Source: an uncultured Bacilli bacterium
GTDB lineage: Bacteria > Bacillota_I > Bacilli_A > RF39 > UBA660
Assembly (NCBI GenBank): GCA_947588935.1
Contig: CANQAU010000002.1
Location: 1-41,878, forward strand
Direction of reading: 5' to 3'
Length of the DNA: 41,878 nucleotides
Shown here: one piece after another, positions 2,662-34,947 of the stretch
Numbering within the stretch: the first letter of the stretch is position 1
How the letters are laid out: the number at the start of each line of letters is the position of its first letter
Notes under the pieces: generated by a model
Seen by the model: only the letters and a program-made list of their open reading frames with translations
Databases searched by the model: none
Told to the model about the DNA's origin: nothing
Translations under genes and position numbers: made by a program

Positions 2662-4779
2662 TTCTTTTATGAGCGATAGGTTGACTTTTTCTTTATCGAT
2701 ATCAATTTTGTCGACGTAACATTTTACGATTTGTCCAACGTGAACTACTTCTTTGGGATCTGTAATATATTCTTTACTCATTTTGGAGATATGAATGAGG
2801 CCATCGTTATGAAGTCCAATATCGACAAAGGCACCAAAGGAGGCGACATTTCGAATGGTACCTTCTAATTCCATTCCTTCTTTTAAGTCTTTGATATCTA
2901 AAATATCACTTTTTAACAATACATTGTCTAATTCATCTCGTCGATCTAGTCCGGGATTTTGCAACTCTTCTTTGATATCGTGTAAGGTATAGATATCGAT
3001 TTTTAACTTATCACTCATTTCTGCTTCGTTGATGTTTTTTATTTTTTCTTTAAAGGCTGGTTGATCGATATCTTGTAAATCGAGATTGACTTCTTTTAAT
3101 AGTTGATAAGTGATTGGATAACTTTCTGGATGAATTTTCGTTCGATCGAGGGGATTGGATGAATCTGGAATTCTTAAAAATCCAATGCATTGTTCAAAAA
3201 TTTTACTGGATATTCCGTTTAATTTTTTGATTTCATCACGATTATGAAATGGAATTTTGTTTTTGTATTCCATAATACTGGCAATGGCTTTTTTATTTAA
3301 TCCTGAAATGTAAGATAAAATACTTTCGCTAGCGGTATTAATATTGACGCCAATTTTGTTGACGATTTTTTCCACTGTAAAATCGAGGGCATTGCTTAAA
3401 TTTTTTTGATTTACATCGTGTTGATATTCTCCTACTCCGATGCTTTTGGGATCGATTTTGACGAGTTCTGACAAGGGATCTTGCACTCTTCTACCAATGG
3501 AAATGGCACTCCGTTTTTCGACTGTTAAATCCGGAAATTCAGCAATCGCTAGTTTACTTGCTGAATAAACGCTGGCTCCGGCTTCACTCACGAAACTATA
3601 TTTTACGGGAAGTCCTTTGATTGCTTGGGCTACAAAGGCTTCGCTTTCTCTCGAGGCGGTGCCATTACCTATGGCAATGACGTTCACATGATATTTCGTA
3701 ATGAGATTTCTTAATACTTCACAACTTTTTGCTTTTTCATTTTTTGGTTCATGCGGATAAATGGTAGCAATTTCTAATACTTCTCCAAATTCATTTAATA
3801 CGGCTAGTTTACATCCTGTTCGAAAAGCTGGATCAAAACCTAAAACCACTGCATTTTTAATAGGTTTCGTCATCAATAGATTTTCGAGGTTTTCTTTAAA
3901 GGTTTCAATGGCCATTTCTTCGGCTTCAGTAGTTAAATCGGATCGTATTTCGCGTTCGATGCTTGGAAGAATTAATCTTTTTAAAGCATCTTTTATGGCA
4001 TTGATGACGATGTCTGTGACAAAGGAAGCTGGATTTTTTATGATTTTTTGTTTTAAAAAATCGATGATTTGTTCTTCATCATATTCGAGATGAACCGATA
4101 ATACATTTTCTTTTTCTCCCCGATTTATAGCCAGTGTACGATAGTGTTTCATAGATTTTAAAGGACTTGTAAAATCATAATACATTTCATATACTTTTTT
4201 TTCATCTTTTGCCGATTTTTTCTTTTTACTTTGCAATTGACCATTTTTCCAAATAAACTTACGAATCCATTTTCGATAATAAGCATTATCACTAATCCAT
4301 TCACTGATAATATATCCAGACTTTTCCATTGCAACATCTACTTCGACATTGTAACCACTTGCTAAGGTATTTTTATCTCCAGATATTGGAAAACTCATTA
4401 TTTTTTTGGCTAAAGGTTCTAATCCTAGTGCAATCGCTTCACTGGCTTTGGTTTTCTTATTTTCTTTAAATGGTCGATAAATGTCTTCGACTTCGGCAAG
4501 TTTGGTACAAGAGGCAATCTCTTTTTCTAAGTCTTCGGTTAACAAGCCTTTTTCTTTAATCAGACGCATGACATCTTCTTTTCGTTTTTTTAGATTGGAT
4601 AGATATTCGTATTCTTTTTCAATGGAACGGATTTGTTCTTCATCTAAGTTGTGTGTTGCTTCTTTTCGATAGCGAGCAATAAAGGGAATGGTCGCGCCAC
4701 TCTCTAATAAATTTTTAACACTGATTACTTGTTCTTTGGTAATATTTAAATTTTTGGCTAATTCGAGTTCAATATCCAT
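2659..4779 (-). CDS. tex: Tex-like transcription accessory protein (YqgF/HhH/S1 domains)
   Basis: 706 aa. N-terminal IPFIARYRKEAT motif, central RuvC/YqgF-like GFDPAFRTGCKLAV, and a C-terminal S1 domain (GMELEGTIRNVASFGAFVDIGLHNDGLIHISKMS). SD GAGGAGGAAAAAAC lies before the ATG. Confidence 0.92.
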   Translation of the reverse strand: MDIELELAKNLNITKEQVISVKNLLESGATIPFIARYRKEATHNLDEEQIRSIEKEYEYLSNLKKRKEDVMRLIKEKGLLTEDLEKEIASCTKLAEVEDIYRPFKENKKTKASEAIALGLEPLAKKIMSFPISGDKNTLASGYNVEVDVAMEKSGYIISEWISDNAYYRKWIRKFIWKNGQLQSKKKKSAKDEKKVYEMYYDFTSPLKSMKHYRTLAINRGEKENVLSVHLEYDEEQIIDFLKQKIIKNPASFVTDIVINAIKDALKRLILPSIEREIRSDLTTEAEEMAIETFKENLENLLMTKPIKNAVVLGFDPAFRTGCKLAVLNEFGEVLEIATIYPHEPKNEKAKSCEVLRNLITKYHVNVIAIGNGTASRESEAFVAQAIKGLPVKYSFVSEAGASVYSASKLAIAEFPDLTVEKRSAISIGRRVQDPLSELVKIDPKSIGVGEYQHDVNQKNLSNALDFTVEKIVNKIGVNINTASESILSYISGLNKKAIASIMEYKNKIPFHNRDEIKKLNGISSKIFEQCIGFLRIPDSSNPLDRTKIHPESYPITYQLLKEVNLDLQDIDQPAFKEKIKNINEAEMSDKLKIDIYTLHDIKEELQNPGLDRRDELDNVLLKSDILDIKDLKEGMELEGTIRNVASFGAFVDIGLHNDGLIHISKMSKEYITDPKEVVHVGQIVKCYVDKIDIDKEKVNLSLIKE

Positions 4780-4795
4780 GTTTTTTCCTCCTCAA

Positions 4796-4821
4796 ATAAA
4801 AAAGTAGATTTTTTATCTACC
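4796..4821 (-). terminator. intrinsic terminator after the 182-aa TasA-like gene
   Basis: Stem gtagat (4804-4809) / atctac (4815-4820). On the minus strand it is followed by TTTTTTATTT. Confidence 0.5.
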
Positions 4822-4822
4822 T

Positions 4823-5371
4823 TTAATCGCTTATTTTTAATACGGCGCTGAAGTTTTTGCCTCTATCATCCAACTGATCGGCATCTGTCTCTTTATAGGT
4901 GATGGTTAATGTAAAGTTTTTGGTTTCTCCAGAATTGATTTTTAATCCGGTTATTAAATCCGTATCATCTGTCGTTGTCGCTGGTAGTGTAACATTGTCT
5001 TCTTCGGATATTTCTTCATTTAATCCATCAGATAATGTAACAATTAAATCATCTTGATTTACAAAGTTATTGATTACGCTATCCCATACCAAACGGTAAG
5101 TAATGGTTCCACTACCGGAATTGGTTACTTGAAATGTTTTGGTTACTTTATCGCCAGGAATGAGATTTTCTCCCGTTATGACACCGTCTTTGTCTGTTAG
5201 AGAAAATTCAATTTTTGCTCCGGTTATCTGTGTGTCAAAGTCCGTTTCTGGCATCTTGATTGTTGATGTGAAAAAGGCATATGTTCCAGAGATAACAATT
5301 CCAATTAAAATTACGATTGAAATAATCAATGTTATTACTAGCAAGCGATTATTTTCTTTTTGTGGTTCCAT
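4823..5371 (-). CDS. secreted TasA/camelysin-like protein with SipW-type signal peptide
   Basis: The N-terminus has a basic stretch, one hydrophobic helix, then SGTYAFFTSTIK (compare the GGTFAYFSD / GGTWAAFND cleavage region of CalY/TasA). LIPGDKVTKTFQVTNSGSGT resembles the TasA-family L(K)PGD...F.F.N.G strand. C-terminal strand RGKNFSAVLKISD. SD AGGTGA. Confidence 0.6.
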   Translation of the reverse strand: MEPQKENNRLLVITLIISIVILIGIVISGTYAFFTSTIKMPETDFDTQITGAKIEFSLTDKDGVITGENLIPGDKVTKTFQVTNSGSGTITYRLVWDSVINNFVNQDDLIVTLSDGLNEEISEEDNVTLPATTTDDTDLITGLKINSGETKNFTLTITYKETDADQLDDRGKNFSAVLKISD

Positions 5372-5442
5372 ATAATCACCTATTCTTCTATCATTTATTA
5401 TCTTAAATTATTTTCGTTTTGTCAATCTTTAACCGTCTATTC

Positions 5443-5934
5443 TCATGTATTGATGACAAATTTTCCAGTTATTTTTTTGCCCATATCGGTTTCATTGGTT
5501 GAAGGCTGATACCATAAAGTGATTTTGATGTTTACGGTACTGTGTGCGTTTATTGTAGCACCGTTTAACAAAGGACTATTTCTTTTGGGAAATACTTCAT
5601 GGTCCACCATTGGTTTTTCATCTATCCACAGATTATATTTTAAAAATCGTTGTGCACTTAAAGGATTTTTTAGGTTGTCTACTGCTAATGTATATTTTTT
5701 GTCGACATCATTGTCATTGGTTATTTGCAGTTTTATTTCTTGTTGAATCTCTTGGAATCCCATTTCGAATTGAAAGGTTTTTTCTTCCATTTTTAATGGT
5801 AAATCGGTAGTCATCGGTTCTGGCTTTTTTTCTTTTTGGGTATTGATGAAATAAATTGTTGATAGAATTATGATGCCAAGAACGAAAAAAGCAAACAGAC
5901 GCATTTTATCGGCTTTGGTAAGTTTTCTTTTCAT
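5443..5934 (-). CDS. membrane-anchored or secreted protein, distant member of the same beta-sandwich family
   Basis: I trimmed the track ORF (5443..6075) to the internal ATG at 5934 (MKRKLTKADKMRLFAFFVLGIIIL...). That start has SD AGAGGA and removes the 134-nt overlap with trxB. It has a single N-terminal helix and the C-terminal strand MGKKITGKFVINT shared with the paralogs at 22.9-26.3 kb. Confidence 0.5.
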   Translation of the reverse strand: MKRKLTKADKMRLFAFFVLGIIILSTIYFINTQKEKKPEPMTTDLPLKMEEKTFQFEMGFQEIQQEIKLQITNDNDVDKKYTLAVDNLKNPLSAQRFLKYNLWIDEKPMVDHEVFPKRNSPLLNGATINAHSTVNIKITLWYQPSTNETDMGKKITGKFVINT

Positions 5935-5941
5935 ACATCCT

Positions 5942-6832
5942 CTATTTTTGACGACTGAAATGAATGGCAGCACTGGCTCCTTCTGCAGCGGCGGTAACAA
6001 TTTGATATACTTTTTTGATGATAATATCACCGGCGGCATAAATTCCTGGAACGGTTGTTTCATAATTGTCGTCAACCAAAATATATCCGGCTGGATTGGT
6101 GATATTTAAAGCAGAAGCAAAGTCTGTTTTGGGTGCATAACCAATGTAAATGAATAAAGCACTCACTGGAATCTTTTTTTCTTGATTGATTTCAATGCCA
6201 CTTAATACGCCATTTTCCGTTTGTAAATTGGTTACTTGGGAATTATATACGAATTCGACATTTGGACATTTTTTGATTCTTTTAATCAATTCCTCACTTG
6301 CTCGAAATTCATTACGACGATGAATTAAGTAAATTTTTTTTACCAATTTAGATAAGTATAGGGCTTCTTGTAAAGCACTATTTCCTCCTCCTACTACGGC
6401 GATTTCTTTTCCTTTATATAAAGCGCCATCACATAATGCACAGGTACTGATTCCTTTGCCAATTAACTGATCGATATTCGGTAAATCTAACAGAATGGGA
6501 CTTCTTCCGGTCGCAATTAAGACGTTTTTGGCGCGGTACGTATTTTGGGTCGTTTTGACGATCTTTTCCTCTTGATCGACAGATAATTCGATGACTTCTT
6601 CCATTTGATAAGGAATTTCTAAGGCATTGATCTGCTCAAATAGTTTCATTGATAAATCTGGTCCACTAATACTTGTATATCCTGGATAGTTTTCGACATT
6701 GTCAATAATGTTAATAATTCCTCCTGGACGTTCTTTCTCTAAAATTAACACATTTAATCCACCTCGTTTGGCGTAGATGGCTGCACTAATTCCTGCTATT
6801 CCCATTCCAATGATGATGGCATCGTAGGTCAT
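5942..6832 (-). CDS. trxB: thioredoxin-disulfide reductase
   Basis: 296 aa. FAD-binding motif DAIIIGMGIAGISAAIYAKR, redox-active CALCDG, NADPH-binding motif VVGGGNSALQEALYL, and C-terminal GIYAAGD. Confidence 0.92.
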   Translation of the reverse strand: MTYDAIIIGMGIAGISAAIYAKRGGLNVLILEKERPGGIINIIDNVENYPGYTSISGPDLSMKLFEQINALEIPYQMEEVIELSVDQEEKIVKTTQNTYRAKNVLIATGRSPILLDLPNIDQLIGKGISTCALCDGALYKGKEIAVVGGGNSALQEALYLSKLVKKIYLIHRRNEFRASEELIKRIKKCPNVEFVYNSQVTNLQTENGVLSGIEINQEKKIPVSALFIYIGYAPKTDFASALNITNPAGYILVDDNYETTVPGIYAAGDIIIKKVYQIVTAAAEGASAAIHFSRQK

Positions 6833-6844
6833 ATTTGTTCCTCC

Positions 6845-7666
6845 TTAAAAATTGATTGATTGTTGATTTTCTTCACTATATAAATCTTCAAATTTGCTTT
6901 TTCGACTTAAAATCATAAAGGCTAGCATGGCAATGACAAATAAGATAATGGATACAATTTGGGCGACGCGAAAGCCTCCTAACATGAGGGAGTCGGTTCG
7001 AATGGATTCAATGAAGAAACGTCCGAAACTATACCACATAAAATAAATACATGTTTGTTGGCCAATTTTTAAATAGCGATATTTCCGAACGATTAATAAA
7101 AGGATGACTCCTAATAAGCACCATAGTGATTCATAAAAAAAAGTCGGATGGTAATAGTGTCCATTGATATGTAAGCCTTCAATAATTATATTGGGGATAT
7201 GTAAGTTTTGTAAATTGGCAAGGGTTGTTTCAATTCCGTGGGCTTCTCCATTAAAGAAATTTCCCCAGCGACCAATTGCTTGGGCAAGTAAAACGGAAAC
7301 ACTCGCGATGTCGGTAATTTTAAAAGTATTGACATTGTATCGATGGCAATAAAAGGCAATGGTTAAAAAGCCAAAGAGAATTCCTCCATGGATGGCAAGT
7401 CCTCCTTCCCAAATCTTAAAAATGGATAAGGGGTCACTTTGATAAATGGACCAATTAAAGACAACATAATATAGTCTGGCTCCGATAAAACCAATAATCA
7501 TTGTCCAAAAGAATAAATTAAAAATAAAATCTGATGGAAAATTATGACGTTTTGCTTCTTTTTGTAATAGATAATATCCAAATAAGGCTCCCACTAAAAT
7601 TAAAACCGAGTACCATTTTACATCAAAATTACCAATGGAAAATATTACAGGATTTACTTGACTCAT
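6845..7666 (-). CDS. lgt: prolipoprotein diacylglyceryl transferase
   Basis: 273-aa polytopic protein. Motifs WYSVLILVGALFGY, GARLYYV, IWEGGLAIHGG and GRWGNFFNGEAHG are typical of Lgt. Confidence 0.92.
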   Translation of the reverse strand: MSQVNPVIFSIGNFDVKWYSVLILVGALFGYYLLQKEAKRHNFPSDFIFNLFFWTMIIGFIGARLYYVVFNWSIYQSDPLSIFKIWEGGLAIHGGILFGFLTIAFYCHRYNVNTFKITDIASVSVLLAQAIGRWGNFFNGEAHGIETTLANLQNLHIPNIIIEGLHINGHYYHPTFFYESLWCLLGVILLLIVRKYRYLKIGQQTCIYFMWYSFGRFFIESIRTDSLMLGGFRVAQIVSIILFVIAMLAFMILSRKSKFEDLYSEENQQSINF

Positions 7667-19144: not shown

Positions 19145-19681
19145 CTATATATTGATTCCTTTTTGCAATTCAAAAGCATAATTTAATGTTTTTCCTTGCA
19201 TTTCATTTCCAGTACGGTAATCCATCCACATTAATAAATTATAATCTTTTGTTTCACCGACGATGGAATCACTTGTGATTAAAAAATAATAATGATCTGC
19301 ATCTTCATACGTATACAATTCTTTTAAGGATTTGACTTCTGCTTGAAACAAAACATTTAAACAGTTATAATCTAAAGTTGAAGTTTTCGATACCTTCATT
19401 ATCAAATTAAAGTTTTCTTTTGTTAATGATTCATTTACTACGGAAATGGTCATTGGATTTAATGTATTGATGGCAACTTCATTATCCATTGGAAACATTG
19501 GTCCTTGTGGAGAATGGTTGACTTTTAAATAGGTATACTGGGCTTGATCATAAAAAGCAGCAGTGGATAAGTGCTCTCCAATATTTAATGTTTTCCATAG
19601 TGGATAACTAACAGCAATGACAACAAGCATCATGGTAATTTCAATTATTTTCCAACGAATAATTTTGTTAATTGTTTTCAT
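19145..19681 (-). CDS. small secreted protein, sixth member of the TasA-like family in the sipW locus
   Basis: 178 aa. One N-terminal helix, then HLSTAAFYDQ (compare TasA GGTWAAFND). C-terminal strand MQGKTLNYAFELQKG matches the family. The SD (GAGGGGG) sits rather far, 13 nt, from the ATG. Confidence 0.5.
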   Translation of the reverse strand: MKTINKIIRWKIIEITMMLVVIAVSYPLWKTLNIGEHLSTAAFYDQAQYTYLKVNHSPQGPMFPMDNEVAINTLNPMTISVVNESLTKENFNLIMKVSKTSTLDYNCLNVLFQAEVKSLKELYTYEDADHYYFLITSDSIVGETKDYNLLMWMDYRTGNEMQGKTLNYAFELQKGINI

Positions 19682-19749: not shown

Positions 19750-20616
19750 TTATTTCCGGCGTTTGCCTTTCTTATTTTTTGGTTTATTTTCTGATTTTTC
19801 ATCGTTGGTTTTTAATTTTGGAAGTACGACGGTATCTGCAAAATCATTTTCCTTTTCTTTTGGTGCATCCACGGTTACTTTCGTTAATTTGCGATGCGTT
19901 GGAAGTGGATCTGGTTCTTCTGAACTTCGATCTAAGTTATAACGACGTTTTAATTCTTGACGAATGGCTTCTTTCTTTTTCTTTTCGCGATTGGCAACTT
20001 TGGCTTCGCTTTGTAAAGCCGTATTGACTTTTTTCTTTGCTCCTGTTAACCGGAAAATCTTTAAGATATCACTTAGAATGATAAACAAAGCCGGAACGAC
20101 TACTACGACTAACCAACCTGATGAAGTTGCTAAAAACTGTTGCAATTTTCCAAGTTGAGGAAGTTTTAAAATGACTTTTCCTTTAATATTTCGAAAAGGT
20201 ACTGTTGCTGTATCTGGTGTTGGGTTATTGTCTCCTTGCGTACGGTATTCGATGCCATTTTCGGTTTCAGCAATTCCGACCACCCGGTGAGTTACAATTA
20301 ATCCCTTGGAAATGGTACTGGTAGAAGTAAAGGTTATAATGTCGCCAATTTGAATATCTTCGGGTCGATTTACTTTGGCATTGACGATGACATCATATAC
20401 ATTTAAGTTTGGCGTCATACTTGGACTTACAATGGTATATAATCCAACGGCTGGAGAAAATTCTTCTCCTTTGCTTGCATAGATTTTATTCGCTACAAAA
20501 TAATATAATAAGAAACCGGCGATGAGTAAGAGAATGAGGAGTATTGTCCATGAAATAACATTTGCTATAAATTTAAAAATTTGCTTAAAACCATTATAGT
20601 TTTCGTGTTGTTTCAT
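19750..20616 (-). CDS. sipW: archaeal/ER-type signal peptidase I (SipW-like) with a long basic C-terminal extension
   Basis: SPSMTP (catalytic Ser box), IVTHRVVG (His box, Ser/His type rather than Ser/Lys) and QGDNN (box E). N-terminal and C-terminal TM helices are followed by approx 100 residues rich in K/R/E. SD AGGAAGGG. Confidence 0.8.
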   Translation of the reverse strand: MKQHENYNGFKQIFKFIANVISWTILLILLLIAGFLLYYFVANKIYASKGEEFSPAVGLYTIVSPSMTPNLNVYDVIVNAKVNRPEDIQIGDIITFTSTSTISKGLIVTHRVVGIAETENGIEYRTQGDNNPTPDTATVPFRNIKGKVILKLPQLGKLQQFLATSSGWLVVVVVPALFIILSDILKIFRLTGAKKKVNTALQSEAKVANREKKKKEAIRQELKRRYNLDRSSEEPDPLPTHRKLTKVTVDAPKEKENDFADTVVLPKLKTNDEKSENKPKNKKGKRRK

Positions 20617-20741: not shown

Positions 20742-21122
20742 TTATTCTTTGTTTTTGGATAATCGCAAGATAAAATTGACGATTTTGATATAAATTTCAA
20801 TGATGGAGAATGATAAGGCAAAAGCACTTAACCATTCATATTTTTTTGGTAATTTTGCTTCGATACTGTAATTAATGACTTCAAAATCGACTAATAAAAA
20901 TAAAGAGGCAATGATGGCTTCTGCGGTATTGATGTTGTAGGTATCTACTGCAACCGTTTCGTTTGGTAACACTTTGGGTGTGAGGAAAAAGACGGTTACT
21001 CCGACTAGCGTTAATACAAGAAAGAATATGGTTTTCCCAATGATTCCACTTGCTGTACAAGCAGGATCCCCACTTTCTTCAACTTTATTGATTTTAGCAA
21101 TCATTGGATTTGCTAAAAACAA
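20742..21122 (-). CDS. hypothetical small membrane protein (weak call, TTG start)
   Basis: 126-aa ORF filling the gap between the Ca-repeat gene and sipW. It has two or three hydrophobic segments and a TTG start with a weak SD AGGAAAA. I recognise no family. Confidence 0.3.
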   Translation of the reverse strand: MFLANPMIAKINKVEESGDPACTASGIIGKTIFFLVLTLVGVTVFFLTPKVLPNETVAVDTYNINTAEAIIASLFLLVDFEVINYSIEAKLPKKYEWLSAFALSFSIIEIYIKIVNFILRLSKNKE

Positions 21123-21242: not shown

Positions 21243-22844
21243 CTAATTTGCTGCTTCCACTTCAATTCTGGCCGTATAGTTTTTACCCATGTTGTAGTCT
21301 TGGTTTACTCCCGTTTCTAAGAAATCATATTGTAGTTCATAACTATAAGTCATTCCTGCTGGAATTAAGACATTTTTTAATAAGTATGTATCGGTTGTTG
21401 GTGCTGTATTTCTTCCTGTTAAAGTAATTCCATCTCTACGAATAGAATATACAAAATCACTTGGTGGATTGAAGGTATTACTTACTCCAGTTAATTTGAT
21501 GTTATAGAACAATGTTTGATTTGAACGGTTATTTACAGTAAAACGCATTGTTCCACTCCAACCTGGTTTTGCATCTTGAATATCAATTTTATTTAAATAT
21601 GAAACATATAGGATATTGTTATTTTGACTGGTAATGTCGATGCTTCCATCGCCTTCCGTTCCTAATGTACAATTTAATTCACATTTTCCATCATTATCGG
21701 TATCGACATTTTTATCTGGTTTACCATCATTATTGGTATCGACATTTAAATCTGGTTTTCCATCGCCGTTGGTATCCACATTTAAATCTGGGAAGCCATC
21801 ATTATTGGTATCACAGTTTAAATCACATACTCCATCTTTGTTGGTATCTTGATTCATTAAATTGTCATCTGGATTTTTATCTCCATCCGTATCTTTATTT
21901 ACGTCTGGTGTTCCATCTTTATCTACATCTAGGTCAATATTTGGTTTACCATCTTTATCGGTATCAACATTTAAATCTGGATTGCCATCGCCATCCATAT
22001 CGACATTGACATCTGGATGACCATCATCATTTGTATCACAGTTTAAGTCACATACTCCATCATTGTCGGTATCTTGATCCATTAAATTATGATCTGGTGT
22101 TCCATCGCCGTCGTTATCTTGATTGAAATGAGATTTATTATCGCCACCGTAATCAACATTTTTATCTGGTTTGCCATCATTATTGGTATCCACATTGACA
22201 TCTGGTGTTCCATCGCCATCGGTATCCACATTTAAATCCGGTTTGCCATCGCCGTCGGTATCGATGTTGGTATCTGCTTTTCCATCCCCATTGTTGTCAA
22301 TATTTAAATCTGGTTTGCCATCCCCATCGATATCGATGTTGGTATCTGGATAACCATCTTTGTTGGTATCACAATTGACATCACAAACTCCATCGCTATT
22401 ATTATCTTGATTCATGTGGTTAAAATCTGGTTTTTTATCATAATTGGTATCGATGCCAAAATGAGGAATTCGATCATGATTATAATCGATGTTGTAATCT
22501 GGTTTACCATCCCCATCACTATCACAATTGACATCACAAATGTTATCTCCATCTAAATCAATATTTAAATCGGTTTCACCATTTCCATCCGTATCACAGT
22601 TTAAATCGCATTTTCCGTCGCCATTGAAATCACAATTCAGTCCACATGTTTTTCCGCCTTCAATTGCTCCACCATAAAGGCGAATATAAGAATATGTGGC
22701 TCCAATCATTGCTAAAAATAAGATTAATAAGCATAGCAAGATAATTATAAAGGTTTTCTTCTTGGCTTGTTCTTGCTCTTCTGCTAAAAGCTCTTGATAT
22801 TGCTCTTCGAAATCGATATTTTCTACTGGCTTATTCTCTTTCAT
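21243..22844 (-). CDS. secreted Asp-rich Ca-binding repeat protein (thrombospondin type 3-like repeats) with a TasA-like C-terminal domain
   Basis: 533 aa. Signal/anchor FIIILLCLLILFLAMIGATYSYIRLY, then about 26 units of approx 12 aa (LNVDTDGDGKPD), some carrying CDxNCD. The last approx 125 aa form a beta-rich domain ending MGKNYTARIEVEAAN. SD AAGAAGGA. Confidence 0.8.
   Translation of the reverse strand: MKENKPVENIDFEEQYQELLAEEQEQAKKKTFIIILLCLLILFLAMIGATYSYIRLYGGAIEGGKTCGLNCDFNGDGKCDLNCDTDGNGETDLNIDLDGDNICDVNCDSDGDGKPDYNIDYNHDRIPHFGIDTNYDKKPDFNHMNQDNNSDGVCDVNCDTNKDGYPDTNIDIDGDGKPDLNIDNNGDGKADTNIDTDGDGKPDLNVDTDGDGTPDVNVDTNNDGKPDKNVDYGGDNKSHFNQDNDGDGTPDHNLMDQDTDNDGVCDLNCDTNDDGHPDVNVDMDGDGNPDLNVDTDKDGKPNIDLDVDKDGTPDVNKDTDGDKNPDDNLMNQDTNKDGVCDLNCDTNNDGFPDLNVDTNGDGKPDLNVDTNNDGKPDKNVDTDNDGKCELNCTLGTEGDGSIDITSQNNNILYVSYLNKIDIQDAKPGWSGTMRFTVNNRSNQTLFYNIKLTGVSNTFNPPSDFVYSIRRDGITLTGRNTAPTTDTYLLKNVLIPAGMTYSYELQYDFLETGVNQDYNMGKNYTARIEVEAAN
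21645..22649 (-). repeat. in-frame tandem 36-nt (12-codon) repeat array encoding DxDxDGxxD units, arranged in three approx 90-100-aa super-repeats
   Basis: Recurrent gatggtaaaccagat / gacggcgatggcaaaccggat-type units occur on the minus strand. Three blocks each start with N(H/L)M(N/D)QD..DGVCD(V/L)NCDTN.DG.PD. Confidence 0.85.
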
Positions 22845-22908
22845 AATTGTCCTTCTTTCGCTAACCTATTCTACGTATGATTATAGCATATTTCTTTTCT
22901 TTTTAGCA

Positions 22909-22938
22909 ACAAAAAAAATCTATTTCAAAAATAGATTT
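22909..22938 (-). terminator. intrinsic terminator after paralog 4
   Basis: Stem aaatctattt (22916-22925) / aaatagattt (22929-22938). A T-run follows on the minus strand (A-run 22911-22915 on plus). Confidence 0.6.
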
Positions 22939-22951
22939 CTTACTTTGATTT

Positions 22952-23638
22952 TTATACTGCTAACATTGCTGATATTTTTCCGGTTAATTTTTTACCAAAA
23001 TCATCATTTTGGTCGTTTCCTTTTTCAACATATTCAGCAACAATATAATAATACTTTTCCACCGTGGTTTGATTTGCCGTAATATGAATTACATCATCAT
23101 TTAAAATGGCTGTCGTATCATTTCCTTTTAATTTGGTTGTACCAATTAATTTTCCCAAACTAGATTCTTTTGAATCACAGGATTCTTTGTAATGCACAGT
23201 TCCGACACCATTTCCTGTTTCTTCTTTTTTACAATTGAAGAATCCAGCAGTGGCACTCACATCCGTATCGGATTCATATAATGTTAATTTGATGGCATCA
23301 TCTTCAAAAGCATTGGTTCCATCCCATTTGATGTTGATACTAGATGTTGCAACTTGACTGTTTTGTTGAGCATTTACGGTTATTTTTAATGCAGCGACTT
23401 CTTTATGACCCGGATAAACATCGTCTGCTTCAAACGAACCGGCTGATTTGGATGCGACACCCACAATGGTCGTACTTGCTACGTTACTTGCAGTAATACT
23501 TGTTGAACCATTGTTTCCTCCACTACCACGCTCATCTCTAATGGTTGCAGTAAAGTATGCAAACGTTGCACCTAACACTGAAATTAAAAGTGTTGCTATG
23601 GCAATTACGGTTAATATGATTGAGTTTTTTCTTTCCAT
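22952..23638 (-). CDS. secreted TasA-like paralog 4 (228 aa)
   Basis: MERKNSIILTVIAIATLLISVLGATFAYFTATI. Motifs DVYPGHKEVAAL, a Cys pair (FNCKKEE...YKESC), YYYIVAEY, and C-terminal QNDDFGKKLTGKISAMLAV. SD AAAGGAGA. Confidence 0.75.
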   Translation of the reverse strand: MERKNSIILTVIAIATLLISVLGATFAYFTATIRDERGSGGNNGSTSITASNVASTTIVGVASKSAGSFEADDVYPGHKEVAALKITVNAQQNSQVATSSINIKWDGTNAFEDDAIKLTLYESDTDVSATAGFFNCKKEETGNGVGTVHYKESCDSKESSLGKLIGTTKLKGNDTTAILNDDVIHITANQTTVEKYYYIVAEYVEKGNDQNDDFGKKLTGKISAMLAV

Positions 23639-23728
23639 GTTTATTCTCCTTTATTCTGTTTTTATGTTAGCAAAAAATGTTTTATCCTGCAATATTCTAA
23701 ACTGTCAATTGACATTATTTAACAACAT

Positions 23729-23760
23729 AAAAAAACCTATTATGGAAAATATAGGTTTTT
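23729..23760 (-). terminator. intrinsic terminator after paralog 3 (copy of the element at 24631)
   Basis: aacctat (23734-23740) / ataggtt (23751-23757). A T-run follows on the minus strand. Confidence 0.6.
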
Positions 23761-23831
23761 CATTATAAGGATACAGAATTTTTTTTATTTTTTATTTTAT
23801 TTTTTATTTTTTTAATAAGAGCGTAATCTTA

Positions 23832-24539
23832 TTAAGCAGCTAATTCTACAGAAATTTTACCTTCGAGTGTTTTACTAAAATCAGCATTTTGAGTTGAAGA
23901 TTTATTGATGTATTCTACTACAACATAGTAATAAACTGTTTTTCCAGTAGCACTACCAGTAATTTCTTGCCCTGTAAATTCAACTTTTTCGCCACTTAAA
24001 AGTTTTGTTTCTACAAGTGTTGCACCAGATGTTATTAATTTATTTGCAGAAGCACTCGTCCAATCATTACATTTATCAATGTAATGAATTTCTGTTTCTG
24101 TTGAACCTACATCATCAATGGCATGATTACAAGTAAAGTAATTATCTGTTGTTGCTATTGGAGTATCTTCTTCTGGTTCATATTTGTATAAATGAATATT
24201 GAAACTTTCTGCTGAATATTCATTTTTGGTTGCTTTATAAATAATATTAAATTTACTTATAGCATTTTCCGTAGATGTTGCTTGTACCGATAGTGCTGCA
24301 ACTTCAACATGTCCTGGATAGGCATCATCTTCACTAATATTCGCAGCAGCAGTTTCTACGTTTGCAATTATCGTATTACTTGCTACAGAACCAGCTGTTA
24401 CATTTGTTTTACCTTGATCTTCACCATATTTCTCCGTATTGATTGTTGCAGTGAAGTATGCAAATGTTGCTCCCACTACAGCGACAAGTAGGGTTGCAAT
24501 GGCAATTACTGTTAACAAGATTGTGTTCTTTCTTTCCAT
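23832..24539 (-). CDS. secreted TasA-like paralog 3 (235 aa)
   Basis: MERKNTILLTVIAIATLLVAVVGATFAYFTATI. Motifs DAYPGHVEVAAL, a Cys pair (FTCNHA...YIDKC), YYYVVVEY, and C-terminal QNADFSKTLEGKISVELAA. SD AAAGGAGG. Confidence 0.75.
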   Translation of the reverse strand: MERKNTILLTVIAIATLLVAVVGATFAYFTATINTEKYGEDQGKTNVTAGSVASNTIIANVETAAANISEDDAYPGHVEVAALSVQATSTENAISKFNIIYKATKNEYSAESFNIHLYKYEPEEDTPIATTDNYFTCNHAIDDVGSTETEIHYIDKCNDWTSASANKLITSGATLVETKLLSGEKVEFTGQEITGSATGKTVYYYVVVEYINKSSTQNADFSKTLEGKISVELAA

Positions 24540-24630
24540 CCTTTTCTTACCTCCTTTACTATAAAAATGGTAGCATAGTGTGTTTATAAAAAAGGGCTTG
24601 TTAGTGTTGAAAAACCATTTTTTTGAAAAG

Positions 24631-24660
24631 AAAAAACCTATTATGGAAAAAATAGGTTTT
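24631..24660 (-). terminator. intrinsic terminator after paralog 2
   Basis: aacctatt / aataggtt hairpin. A T-run follows on the minus strand. Confidence 0.6.
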
Positions 24661-24712
24661 CATTATAAGGATACAGAATTTTTTTATTTTTTTAATAAGA
24701 TTACGCTCTTAT

Positions 24713-25435
24713 TTAAGCGGCAAGTTTCACACTTACTTTACCTTTAAGTTCTTTGCTTTGACCTGTTGATGTTTGATTGCCATTATTTTTATATTCTACT
24801 ACAACATAAAAATAATAATCTTTGCCTTCTTCACTACCAGCTAATGTACCATCATAGATTATTTGATCTGTGATTTGTCCAGTTGTTAGTGGAGTTGTTG
24901 TTGGTTTTGAATCACCAAAAGTTGTTGTTTCTTCTTCTGCTGAACAAGTTTCAGAATATTGAATTTTTTGAGTATTTTCTTCTCCACCAGTGCTAGTTAC
25001 TTGCTTTTTGCATTTGAAGAAACCAACTTCGTCATCTTGATTTCCTGAAGCATCTATGGAAACCAAAGTTTCATCCTTTTTATAAACTCTTACTTCAACA
25101 TCACTTGTTGGGAATCCATTTGTTCCATTCCATACAATTTGAATATGACTTGATGCACTTGTTTCTGATGTTACTTTAACGGCTAAAGCTGCAACTTCTT
25201 TATGTCCTGGATAAACATCTGCTACGGTAAATTTACCTGCATTTTCTTCAACGTTACTAACAACAACAGTTTCAGCTACAGAACCAGATGAAATATTGGT
25301 TTGGCCTTTATCTTCGGTACCATCACGATTATCCGTGATTGTTGCAGTGAAGTATGCAAATGTTGCTCCCACTACAGCGACAAGTAGGGTTGCAATGGCA
25401 ATTACTGTCAACAAAATTGTATTCTTTCTTTCCAT
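24713..25435 (-). CDS. secreted TasA-like paralog 2 (240 aa)
   Basis: Same 33-aa N-terminus as paralogs 1 and 3. Motifs DVYPGHKEVAAL, a Cys pair (FKCKKQ...YSETC), YYFYVVVEY, and C-terminal KELKGKVSVKLAA. SD AAAGGAGG. Confidence 0.75.
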   Translation of the reverse strand: MERKNTILLTVIAIATLLVAVVGATFAYFTATITDNRDGTEDKGQTNISSGSVAETVVVSNVEENAGKFTVADVYPGHKEVAALAVKVTSETSASSHIQIVWNGTNGFPTSDVEVRVYKKDETLVSIDASGNQDDEVGFFKCKKQVTSTGGEENTQKIQYSETCSAEEETTTFGDSKPTTTPLTTGQITDQIIYDGTLAGSEEGKDYYFYVVVEYKNNGNQTSTGQSKELKGKVSVKLAA

Positions 25436-25537
25436 CTTCTTTCTTACCTCCTTTACTATAAAAATGGTAGCACAGTGACTCTCTAAAAGAGGTATAGTTA
25501 GTGTTAAAAATCCGTTTTTTTAATCATTTTTTGACAA

Positions 25538-25569
25538 CAAAAAAATCTATCTTTCGATAGATCTTTTTT
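25538..25569. terminator. hairpin terminator after paralog 1 (A-run and T-run on both sides)
   Basis: atctatc (25545-25551) - tttc - gatagat (25556-25562), flanked by aaaaaaa and tttttt. Confidence 0.55.
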
Positions 25570-25600
25570 CATTGGTTTAATAAGAATACAAAAATTCTTA

Positions 25601-26287
25601 TTAAGCAGCAAGTTCAACTGAAACTTTACCTTCTAGTGATTGACCCATTTCAGCATTTTGTTCGTCATCATTTGTGTATTCAACTACTATATAATAGTAA
25701 GCAGTTTTTCCAGGGTCTTCAGCTCCAGTAATGGTATCAGAAGCTAAAACTACTTCTTCTGCATTACCTTTTAAGGTTGTAGTTGTTCCAACTTGAGAAG
25801 CTCCAGTTAAGTTGTTTGTAGTAGCATTTGTCCAACCTGAACAAGTTTCAGAATATTGAACAGTTTCTGTACCAGTAACTTGCTTGTCACATGAAAATTG
25901 TGTTGCTGTTGTTGTAATTGGTGTGTCGCTTTTCATAACGTAAACTTTTACATGTGTTCCAAGATTGTTCGTCGTTACATTATACTTAATGTTAATCTTT
26001 ACAGGTGCATTCGTATCTGATTTCGCTGTTACAGATAATGCTGCAACTTCAACGTGTCCTGGATAAACATCAGTTGCGGTAAATTTACCAGCAGCGTTAT
26101 CTACGTTAGCAACGATCGTTTCACTTGCTACAGATCCAGCTGTTACTTTTGTTTCACCTTGTCCGCTGCCAGCTGTACGATCATCTTGAATTGTTGCTGT
26201 AAAGTATGCAAATGTTGCTCCTACAACTGCTACCAATAATGTTGCAATGGCAATCACTGTCAACAAAATTGTGTTTTTTCTTTCCAT
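25601..26287 (-). CDS. secreted TasA-like paralog 1 (228 aa)
   Basis: Same N-terminal peptide as paralogs 2 and 3, but encoded with many synonymous differences. Motifs DVYPGHVEVAAL, a Cys pair (FSCDKQ...YSETC), YYYIVVEY, and C-terminal QNAEMGQSLEGKVSVELAA. SD AAGGAGG. Confidence 0.75.
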   Translation of the reverse strand: MERKNTILLTVIAIATLLVAVVGATFAYFTATIQDDRTAGSGQGETKVTAGSVASETIVANVDNAAGKFTATDVYPGHVEVAALSVTAKSDTNAPVKINIKYNVTTNNLGTHVKVYVMKSDTPITTTATQFSCDKQVTGTETVQYSETCSGWTNATTNNLTGASQVGTTTTLKGNAEEVVLASDTITGAEDPGKTAYYYIVVEYTNDDEQNAEMGQSLEGKVSVELAA

Positions 26288-26317: not shown

Positions 26318-26346
26318 ATATTAACAAAAATTTTTTTAGAGTTCAA
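26318..26346 (-). promoter_or_regulatory. candidate sigma-A promoter of paralog 1
   Basis: Minus strand reads TTGAAC (26341-26346), a 17-nt spacer, TAATAT (26318-26323), then about 30 nt to the ATG. Confidence 0.55.
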
Positions 26347-28020: not shown

Positions 28021-28094
28021 GGAGCTTTAGCCAAGTGGTAAGGCGTGGGACTGCAACTCCCTGATCACCAGTTCAAATCTGGTAGGCTCCTCCA
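28021..28094 (+). tRNA. tRNA-Cys (anticodon GCA), CCA encoded
   Basis: Hand-folded cloverleaf. Acceptor GGAGCTT/AGGCTCC, D-arm GCC-AAGTGGTAA-GGC, anticodon stem TGGGA/TCCCT with loop CTGCAAC, T-arm ACCAG-TTCAAAT-CTGGT, discriminator T plus CCA. Confidence 0.9.
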
Positions 28095-34583: not shown

Positions 34584-34947
34584 TGGTGGAGCAGAGGAGA
34601 GTTGAACTCCTGTCCAAACAATTCTATGATAAAACATCTACAAGTTTAGTGAAAATTAGATCTCATAGTTTTTCAGGCTTTCACACACCTAACCAAACTA
34701 CCAGTTTAATTTGTATTCTTTCAGTTACCTTAAACAAATAACTGAGTATATCTTATATTTATGAACTCTATTATTTCCCTATAAGAAAAAGAAATATAGA
34801 GTGCTTCTACGACCTTAAATTAGGCTGCTACAAAAGCAGGAGAAGCGAAAGAATAACTTTCGTCATTTAAATTTTAATTTGCATTTATAGTATGCCTACT
34901 ACTTGCAGTCTTATCTAGTGATTGCTGTCGAAACCATTTACTGCCCC
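34584..34947 (-). ncRNA. ssrA: tmRNA (transfer-messenger RNA, SsrA), 364 nt
   Basis: The minus strand starts GGGGCAGTAAATGGTTTCGACAGC and ends GGACAGGAGTTCAACTCTCCTCTGCTCCACCA. The acceptor stem GGGGCAG/CTGCTCC carries the G3:U70 Ala identity pair, and the T-arm is GGAG-TTCAACT-CTCC. An internal tag frame reads ...GAC GAA AGT TAT TCT TTC GCT TCT CCT GCT TTT GTA GCA GCC TAA = ...DESYSFASPAFVAA*. Confidence 0.93.

Follow-up and report, generated by a model that had tools for sequence, protein, structure and literature searches.

Four tandem paralogs beside a SipW-like peptidase gene in an uncultured Bacilli bacterium: candidate subunits of a TasA-type fibre

The four-gene array and its expression signals

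The stretch of DNA analysed here, hereafter the window, comprises positions 1 to 41,878 of contig CANQAU010000002.1 (assembly GCA_947588935.1, forward strand) from an uncultured Bacilli bacterium. It carries four paralogous open reading frames (ORFs), all co-oriented and head to tail on the minus strand, with a gene for a SipW-like signal peptidase downstream of them. We call the ORFs copy A (25601..26287, 228 amino acids (aa)), copy B (24713..25435, 240 aa), copy C (23832..24539, 235 aa) and copy D (22952..23638, 228 aa), the last being the most divergent. An earlier note, made from the letters of this DNA, had described them as paralogs with invariant termini and hypervariable cores, each its own transcription unit, and had likened them to flagellins or pilins under antigenic variation. 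The four-paralog array is real, and more than chance. The 33-residue N-terminus MERKNTILLTVIAIATLLVAVVGATFAYFTATI is identical in A, B and C and carries five substitutions in D, and the anchors D(V/A)YPGH(K/V)EVAAL, a cysteine pair, YY(Y/F)(I/V)V(V/A)EY and the C-terminal GK(I/V)S..LA are found in the copies, although conservation of the C-terminus is merely moderate. The claim that the segments in between are unalignable and hypervariable is overstated: the mature parts align end to end, at 34-47% aa and 51-62% nucleotide (nt) identity.

Each copy is accompanied by a full set of putative expression signals. An AGGAG-type Shine-Dalgarno sequence lies 12-21 nt 5' of each ATG, and an extended -10 motif, TGnTAnnAT, which has a background frequency of 0.76 per kb on the minus strand, precedes every copy at -34 to -39 from the ATG. 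The promoter-like element of A (26318..26346, minus strand) consists of TTGAAC, a 17-nt spacer and the extended -10 TGtTAATAT, with the motif offset at -39; the corresponding extended -10 sequences, all on the minus strand, are TGCTACCAT for B (25464..25472, -37 from the ATG), TGCTACCAT again for C (24567..24575, -36) and TGCTAACAT for D (23664..23672, -34). A hairpin with a T-run, like that of a terminator, lies 3' of every copy on the same strand, with fold z-scores of -3.0 to -6.3 against shuffled sequences: after A at 25540..25567 (-20.4 kcal/mol, z = -6.3), with a second hairpin, overlapping the stop codon, at 25577-25604; after B at 24625..24661 (z = -3.75); after C at 23724..23760 (z = -3.0, 97% identical to the hairpin of B); and after D at 22908..22941 (z = -3.0). 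In a related five-copy array (locus L002), a TTGAAA-17-TGn(-10) promoter-like site likewise stands before each copy. An Rfam scan of the window found no RNA element in the array. On these motifs, four independent transcription units are plausible. The earlier description of the array thus stands as regards the ORFs, the N-terminus, the anchors, the Shine-Dalgarno sites and the hairpins, and fails as regards the unalignability and hypervariability of the cores.

Signal peptide, linked peptidase and kinship with TasA

The peptidase gene (19750..20616, minus strand) begins about 2.3 kb downstream of copy D and encodes a SipW-like (archaeal/endoplasmic-reticulum-type) signal peptidase I, which scores 95.9 bits against TIGR02228 (cut-off 51.85). 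The SipW model NF046067 is its second-best match, at 84 bits, below the equivalog cut-off. Its translation contains SPSM and THRV motifs, which we take to be the catalytic Ser and His motifs of this enzyme class.

Residues 1-27 of the four proteins are encoded at 26207-26287 (A), 25355-25435 (B), 24459-24539 (C) and 23558-23638 (D). In profile alignments, the G-A-T-F-A|Y-F of the family is in register with the G-G-T-W-A|A-F of TasA, and mature TasA in PDB 8AUR starts at A28. In A, B and C the model for SipW-dependent signals, TIGR04088, aligns with residues 11-32 and scores 15.5-16.9 bits (B 15.9, C 16.9), below its cut-off of 19; it does not match copy D. Since the motif is aligned with the TasA site and with the mature start of 8AUR, and given TIGR04088 and the linked peptidase, we predict that the N-terminal 27 residues are a SipW-type signal peptide cleaved at A27|Y28. 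The sequence YFTATI is conserved at the predicted mature N-terminus of the family; in TasA, the donor strand is formed by residues 28-38, directly after the cleavage site (PMC9674648). The earlier note had taken the N-terminus for an assembly terminus of the flagellin or pilin type; it is instead a predicted cleavable signal followed by the probable start of a donor strand. Flagellin identity was likewise rejected, as the proteins have no Flagellin_N or Flagellin_C Pfam match and the model of copy A is all-beta after the signal helix.

A conserved signal followed by a variable body is also the profile of 67 family members from other genomes, in which the frequency of the top residue is 0.93 in the signal and 0.50 in the mature part. 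Bona fide TasA proteins have the same profile (0.85 and 0.49 in named TasA proteins). The pattern is thus a trait of the family rather than a peculiarity of this array, and a near-invariant signal peptide before a variable mature part is a trait of TasA as well.

The family is large and almost devoid of annotation. A search with copy A returned 1,061 proteins at E <= 1e-3, and among the 120 matches listed there was one uninformative name ('hypothetical protein') and no Pfam domain; a search with the family profile returned 1,707 cluster representatives at 50% identity. When the four proteins were scanned against Pfam and NCBIfam, no family came out above threshold. The TasA/camelysin family PF12389 is the commonest weak match, found in 8 of the 67 family members with a best E of 1.7e-3. 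A bridge is provided by a class of shorter proteins, one of which is a 182-aa paralog encoded in the window itself (4823..5371, minus strand), with a PF12389 score of 31 bits against a gathering score of 22.5. Genes of this class, of about 200 aa, lie between the family gene and a gene for a large protein in many related loci. Profile comparison by hhalign aligns the four-copy family with the short class over the full length (99.6% probability, E 8.6e-25). The short class in turn aligns with a TasA-family profile built from 40 named TasA/CalY proteins (88% probability, E 2.9e-6), and 3 of its 15 members match PF12389, at best with E 2e-9. The AlphaFold2 (AF2) model of the 182-aa paralog, with a predicted local distance difference test score (pLDDT) of 85, matches the TasA fibre 8AUR best among PDB entries (E 1e-4, probability 1.00); a homolog search with this paralog found only 4 proteins, too few for a deep alignment. 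The link to the superfamily is therefore transitive: the family matches the short class, and the short class matches both PF12389 and TasA. We conclude that the four proteins form a remote, unannotated TasA/camelysin branch that is not to be filed among the members of PF12389.

A number of results weigh against this kinship, or against the export route that goes with it. PF12389 gives no match to the four copies at E <= 0.1, and hhalign of the family against TasA, or against the named TasA/CalY profile, reaches 1-2% probability, which is not significant, although the alignment between family and TasA profiles is nonetheless in register. Searching PDB sequences with the family profile yields nothing even at E <= 10. 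The family has a conserved Cys-pair insertion that the short class lacks, and the TIGR04088 scores lie below the cut-off. The AF2 model of copy A (mean pLDDT 81) consists of a helix at residues 3-25, a low-confidence segment at 25-53 and then a beta sandwich at a pLDDT of about 90; a Foldseek search with it gave no PDB match at E <= 1e-3, with TasA outside the top 50 and generic jelly-roll or beta-sandwich proteins as the best matches. We do not count this last failure against homology, because the short paralog does match TasA and because structure-based searches also failed to link to TasA the AbpA protein of Pyrobaculum, a divergent TasA-like jelly-roll subunit whose relation to TasA emerges only with sensitive methods (PMC9245690).

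The surroundings of the family genes are conserved. The genome matches, all assembled from metagenomes of mouse, rabbit, chicken and human (Hadza) guts and roe-deer rumen, carry the labels uncultured Bacilli, Tenericutes or "Mycoplasma sp. CAG:776". We surveyed 78 related loci, denoted by L numbers, in which the conserved gene order is one to six family genes, a gene like that for a 533-aa protein in the window, and sipW. A SipW-like peptidase is co-located with the family gene in 41 of the 78, and many of the loci without sipW are short contigs; homologs of the 533-aa ORF stand between the family gene or genes and sipW in 46 loci. The 533-aa protein (21243..22844, minus strand), whose gene has its own promoter-like site TTGCTA-18-TGcTATAAT, starts with a SipW-like N-terminus (GATYS/YI), continues with Asp-rich DxDxDG-type repeats and ends in a TasA-like domain at residues 411-533; its C-terminal ~120 residues align with the short class at 97.4% probability (hhalign, E 1.1e-11). 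The repeats, DxDxDG/NxD-type and Asp-rich, extend over about 300 residues and resemble calcium-binding repeats; in NCBIfam they have only low-complexity similarity to the Ser-Asp regions of staphylococcal SdrC/D and ClfA/B. Homologs of the protein range from about 390 to about 1,150 aa.

Recombination and divergence of the family genes

Most of the 78 loci have few family copies: one in 42, two in 21, three in 9, four in 3, five in 2 and six in 1. The genomes closest to that of the window (UvrB 86%, 533-aa protein 71% and SipW 64-68% identical) have a single copy, which is only 42-55% identical to the window copies. It follows that the four copies arose by expansion within this lineage, and that no other gene of the locus evolves as fast as the family gene. 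In a neighbour-joining tree of the mature parts, A, B and C cluster on long branches as a group specific to this lineage, whereas D branches deeply; the cores are those of diverged paralogs and not hypervariable cassettes.

The identical N-termini have two different histories. Copy A differs from B and C at 14-15 nt in codons 1-33, essentially all of them synonymous, in line with the earlier observation that the first copy encodes the same peptide by different codons. By Nei-Gojobori estimates, non-synonymous divergence (dN) is 0.014 and synonymous divergence (dS) 0.85-0.99 in this segment. Since dS reaches the same level here as in the remainder of the gene, the identity of the peptide in A with that in B and C is due to purifying selection, and gene conversion was rejected as its cause. 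Copies B and C, on the other hand, are identical at 96 of 99 nt over codons 1-33 and have a common 5' untranslated region (UTR), close to the 96% given in the earlier note, and their dS there is 0.125 as against 1.05 in the mature part (binomial P 1.5e-4; Fisher's test on synonymous sites, P 0.0025), which upholds the suggestion that gene conversion homogenised their 5' ends. The near-identical tract runs from about -40 to +92 and ends sharply at the signal/mature junction. With the promoter region, 5' UTR and codons 1-33, the converted segment occupies 25336..25521 on the B side and 24440..24624 on the C side (both minus strand; direct repeats 95% and 85% identical). Conversion between B and C reaches their 3' flanks as well: the stop-codon hairpin, A-rich tract and terminator after B (24631..24716, minus strand) are 95-97% identical to their partner after C (23730-23835). 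The stop-codon hairpins of B (24692-24716) and C (23811-23835) are reverse complements of each other over 25 nt (96% complementary), with loops GCGTAA and TTACGC; such a flip is as expected from template switching at a quasi-palindrome. The mature parts of B and C are the least similar pair of all (34%), and the tree groups A with C, not B with C. The conflict between tree (A with C) and flanks (B with C) is direct evidence of recombination.

A 1,306-bp metagenome fragment from ENA (L079) represents a second strain, 96% identical to positions 24500-25850 of the window and spanning the 3' end of A, the whole of B and the start of C. Its B allele is 94% identical to B in aa; of the 15 aa differences, 8 lie within residues 33-43, and codons 32-46 form a dense mosaic patch that resembles copy A, with a proportion of synonymous differences (pS) of 0.61. 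The tail of its copy A has four non-synonymous changes and no synonymous ones, all within residues 205-212, the last loop. The promoter region of its copy C is a copy of that before B, and in the 3' UTR its B has an A-rich tract longer by 8 nt. These differences between strains show that conversion is still under way in the array.

Exchange of the locus is also suggested by pairs of close relatives. The family gene has a dS of 0.025 between L029 and L030, against 0.35-0.83 for almost all other genes, and of 0.033 between L031 and L033, against 0.7-1.5 for its neighbours. Tracts of 96-100% identity start just upstream of the family gene and extend into the downstream large gene (L029:6047-7650 vs L030; L031:6465-7700 vs L033; L022:7100-12400 vs L023), while the flanking genes are mostly 71-89% identical in the first of these pairs and lower in the second (dS 0.4-1.5). 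These contrasts point to recent exchange of the locus between species. Related arrays have kept their order: three from rabbit guts (L002, L003, L006) are collinear and 85-93% identical, with position-by-position orthologs.

Within such pairs the family gene accumulates replacements. Between L022 and L023 it has 14.5 non-synonymous and 1.5 synonymous changes, compared with 15 and 29 in two neighbours on the same tract (Fisher P ~3e-4). Its dN/dS is 0.6-2.95 in the three closest genome pairs, in which neighbouring genes mostly have values of 0.02-0.16 and the highest, in a few short ORFs, reach 0.38. When eight close pairs are pooled, the ratio of non-synonymous to synonymous differences per site (pN/pS) starts at 0.08 in the signal peptide, takes values of 0.23-0.65 up to residue 165 and reaches 1.06 in residues 166-194 and 3.96 in residues 195-228. 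Replacements are about 2.4-fold denser off the predicted strands (98 on 92 non-strand positions, 49 on 109 strand positions), with hot spots at residues 36-43, 121-128, 150-165 and 205-217, and positions 212-213 change repeatedly. These values are suggestive of diversifying selection on the family gene. They also agree with the view of the earlier note that constraint on the regions for export and assembly goes together with diversification elsewhere in the proteins, as seen in a dN of 0.014 against a dS of about 0.9 in codons 1-33 and in a pN/pS that rises along the gene.

Could the copies be no more than ordinary diverged duplicates, which arose for dosage or sub-functionalisation and have drifted under relaxed constraint without diversifying selection? 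Among the paralogs, synonymous sites are close to saturation (dS 0.7-1.65), dN/dS stays below 1, at 0.4-0.7, and the closest genomes have one copy. Raised dN/dS between very close genomes, moreover, is a known lag effect of relaxed or delayed purifying selection, and our ortholog estimates come from small counts in metagenome bins, with pairs that partly share genomes; both points weaken the case for diversifying selection. The excess of replacements in the family gene over its neighbours on the same tract, the repeated change of the same loop positions in independent pairs and the pN/pS of the C-terminal third speak against drift, however, and we regard plain duplication as a possible but doubtful account.

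A proposed fibre, its alternatives and known counterparts

We consider it probable that the products of the four genes are major subunits, paralogous to one another, of a TasA/BsaA-like fibre or matrix outside the cell. The pre-proteins would be exported by Sec and cut by the co-located SipW-like peptidase after the T-F-A motif, at A27|Y28; the N-terminus thus freed (YFTATI...) and the flexible segment that follows would then form a donor strand and complete the sandwich of the next subunit. The low-confidence residues 25-53 in the model of copy A would fit a strand that does not pack in cis. The 533-aa protein, with the 182-aa paralog, is probably a nucleating, anchoring or minor subunit. The copies keep the signal, the donor-strand start and core strands (PGHxEVAAL, YYYIVVEY, GKVSVELA) and differ at predicted loops; because the core and export parts are kept and the predicted non-strand positions differ, the four may be interchangeable subunits with different surfaces. 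They may also be expressed separately, since each copy has promoter-like and terminator-like elements of its own. The array itself would have evolved as genes were duplicated, their flanks locally converted and residues in the loops rapidly replaced. What the analysis shows is the chain of homology, the gene linkage, the patterns of selection and conversion and the sequence motifs, whereas cleavage, donor-strand polymerisation, separate expression and the cause of diversification are what we infer.

The same proteins might instead be secreted or surface beta-sandwich proteins that do not polymerise, such as adhesins or matrix- or glycan-binding proteins of differing specificities, perhaps tethered to the membrane by an uncleaved helix. 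Conservation of the hydrophobic helix far exceeds that of ordinary signal peptides, which could mean that the helix is retained; the Foldseek matches of copy A include lectin, carbohydrate-binding module (CBM) and MAM-type sandwiches; and the case for fibres is indirect. Yet the signal peptide is equally conserved in genuine, cleaved TasA, the T-x-A motif falls in the alignment on the site at which TasA is known to be cut, the gene is closely linked to that of a dedicated SipW-like peptidase, and the chain of homology ends at a fibre protein. We therefore think a non-polymerising role unlikely.

A further alternative is programmed antigenic or phase variation, in which one copy is expressed and silent donor cassettes are brought in by inversion or conversion. 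The window was examined for features of such a system. All four copies have an ATG, a Shine-Dalgarno sequence, an extended -10 and a terminator; no silent cassettes or further fragments were found in the 41.9-kb window, and no long inverted repeats between copies, only direct repeats common to them. A scan of 20 ORFs, which covered about half of those of at least 100 aa in the window, revealed no recombinase. In its programmed form, the analogy with antigenic variation drawn in the earlier note thus finds no support in the window. As a whole, its first interpretation held for the constrained export parts, the diversifying surfaces and the conversion between the second and third copies, and gave way on the analogy and on the degree of variability.

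Elsewhere in the family, copies are arranged differently. In seven rabbit-gut bins (L057:1-11445, L044:1-6653, L063, L045, L055, L040 and L051) family copies alternate in orientation, and their 5' ends form inverted repeats of 111-209 nt with 89-100% complementarity. Many of these copies have lost the start codon (ATG to AAG in nine, TAA in one) or have a replaced 5' end, and the start-less copies keep an open body of 230-265 codons. Among 125 copies surveyed, 104 have an ATG, 18 do not (three of these having GTG or TTG) and three lie at contig edges. Genes for an AbiEi/AbiEii pair and for AAA_14/DUF4143 ATPases lie between the inverted copies (L057:2351-3783 and 6163-7356; L044:967-2187 and 4445-5632); near the inverted arrays of these two short contigs there was no recombinase, only those ATPases and the AbiEi/AbiEii pair. 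The arrangement looks like one of silent cassettes and expression copies, though misassembly across the repeats is possible, and the start-less copies hint at a switching system elsewhere in the family.

For the window, the inverted arrays with lost starts (in L044, L057, L063, L045 and L055), the converted flanks of B and C and the further converted promoter and mosaic patch in the second strain speak for programmed variation. Against it stand the co-oriented, complete window copies with no extra cassettes or long inverted repeats, the lack of a recombinase among the scanned ORFs and the position-by-position orthology kept by related arrays, and we judge it very unlikely. It is scarcely credible, finally, that the proteins are type IV pilin- or archaellin-like subunits with a retained N-terminal helix as filament core: a conserved hydrophobic helix before a variable globular part is superficially pilin-like, but MERKN-TILLTV lacks the G/A at -1 and the Glu at +5 of a class III signal, none of the four proteins has a pilin Pfam match, the linked enzyme is a SipW-type signal peptidase I and not a prepilin peptidase, and the homology leads to TasA.

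Returning to the TasA-type fibre as our preferred reading, a wider proposition would be that the family is the major subunit of a TasA-type fibre that is antigenically diversified in gut Bacilli, through paralog arrays, conversion with the conserved 5' (signal-peptide) and 3' flanks as homology arms, exchange of alleles between species and, in some lineages, silent copies that lack a start codon, lie in inverted arrays and could be switched into expression. We advance this tentatively and would not expect it to hold in full. If it were true, it would be the first case, as far as we have found, of pilin- or S-layer-style antigenic variation on fibres of the SipW/TasA class, and the array in the window would be the simplest, all-expressed form of such a system. 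Fast loops, arrays, converted flanks and interspecies exchange typically mark flagellins, pilins and S-layer proteins on which the immune system or phages exert pressure. Fibres of the TasA type are known above all as scaffolds in the biofilms of Bacillus and Clostridium; to our knowledge, an antigen-like evolutionary signature has so far not been described for TasA-like fibres. The family, with about 1,700 clusters at 50% identity in uncultured gut Bacilli and no Pfam model, is by our reading a remote branch of the TasA superfamily. This gives a concrete annotation to thousands of 'hypothetical proteins' and a testable model of how wall-poor, uncultured gut Bacilli present and vary their surface.

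Other genes of the locus and window fit less clearly. A 178-aa membrane-anchored protein is encoded downstream of sipW (19145..19681, minus strand) and has a homolog 3' of sipW in 13 loci; it has no Pfam match and its relation to the short class is not significant. A 210-aa membrane-anchored ORF (5443-6075, minus strand) directly precedes the 182-aa TasA-like gene and has a similar last strand, ...MGKKITGKFVI; hhalign against the short class gives 6%, which is not significant. These profile comparisons do not support either neighbour as a further TasA-like protein. Between the large-protein gene and sipW lies a 126-aa ORF with a TTG start (20742-21122, minus strand), which matches only the C-terminal 95 positions of the BaxI_1 profile, is absent from all related loci and is probably the remnant of a truncated gene. 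This BaxI-like ORF, an ABC transporter and a DUF4362 neighbour were discarded as parts of the system, not being conserved in related loci. Some of the proteins retrieved with the family profile (P0129-P0135, P0198, P0211 and P0231) are 500-700 aa long; in these the family domain is N-terminal and is followed by 300-450 residues with no Pfam match. The window further contains a tmRNA gene (34584-34947, minus strand; Rfam RF00023, 120.5 bits), a tRNA gene (28021-28091, plus strand) and housekeeping genes such as uvrA, uvrB and those for a DHH/DHHA2-CBS protein and a LysM protein.

How does the locus compare with known systems? The tapA-sipW-tasA operon of Bacillus subtilis, whose TasA fibres (PF12389) assemble by donor-strand exchange, likewise has a dedicated SipW-type peptidase beside its subunit genes and a larger accessory protein with a related N-terminus. 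Its subunit resembles ours in a highly conserved signal peptide with a G-x-T-[FW]-A motif, in a PG[DH]-containing strand and, as far as predictions for our proteins go, in a mature N-terminus directly after the cut site and a jelly-roll-type beta sandwich. Unlike TasA, the four proteins have no direct match to PF12389 or TasA and are linked through the short class, and they have a conserved Cys-pair insertion that this bridging class lacks. The accessory protein here has, instead of a TapA-like domain, Asp-rich repeats and a C-terminal TasA-like domain, and a single operon is replaced by four paralogous major-subunit genes with separate promoter and terminator motifs. The sipW-tasA-calY locus of Bacillus cereus also has two paralogous subunits beside sipW, and CalY has a TFAYF(S/T) motif at its signal/mature junction that resembles the motif here. 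CalY matches PF12389, however, whereas the four proteins do not, and beyond the junction no direct similarity is detectable.

Another parallel is offered by the sipW-bsaA-bsaB-bsaC locus of Clostridium perfringens and the wider BsaA/TasA family, with several TasA/BsaA paralogs in one operon, for which heteropolymers have been suggested (PMC11580942). There too, remote TasA homologs lie next to sipW with several paralogs per locus, a disordered N-terminal segment has been proposed as the donor strand, and a large accessory protein is part of the locus (PMC11580942). The differences are that the accessory protein here is not a VWA protein and that the hosts are uncultured gut Bacilli rather than Clostridia. 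AbpA, introduced above, is alike in that our model of copy A is similarly unlinked to TasA by structure search, and unlike in being archaeal, without a dedicated SipW and with no tandem paralog array described.

In their evolution, the genes recall systems of another kind. The sapA homologs of Campylobacter fetus, the vsa genes of Mycoplasma pulmonis and pilE/pilS of Neisseria combine a conserved 5' region with a variable body and conversion tracts. Conserved 5' ends and conversion tracts are found here as well, and relatives of the locus have start-less inverted copies, but the copies in the window are complete, co-oriented and individually equipped, and no invertible segment was found. We place the locus, as a variant, among the known TasA/SipW-type fibre loci; besides the start-less copies of some relatives, its main interest lies in a large unannotated family that evolves in an antigen-like manner.

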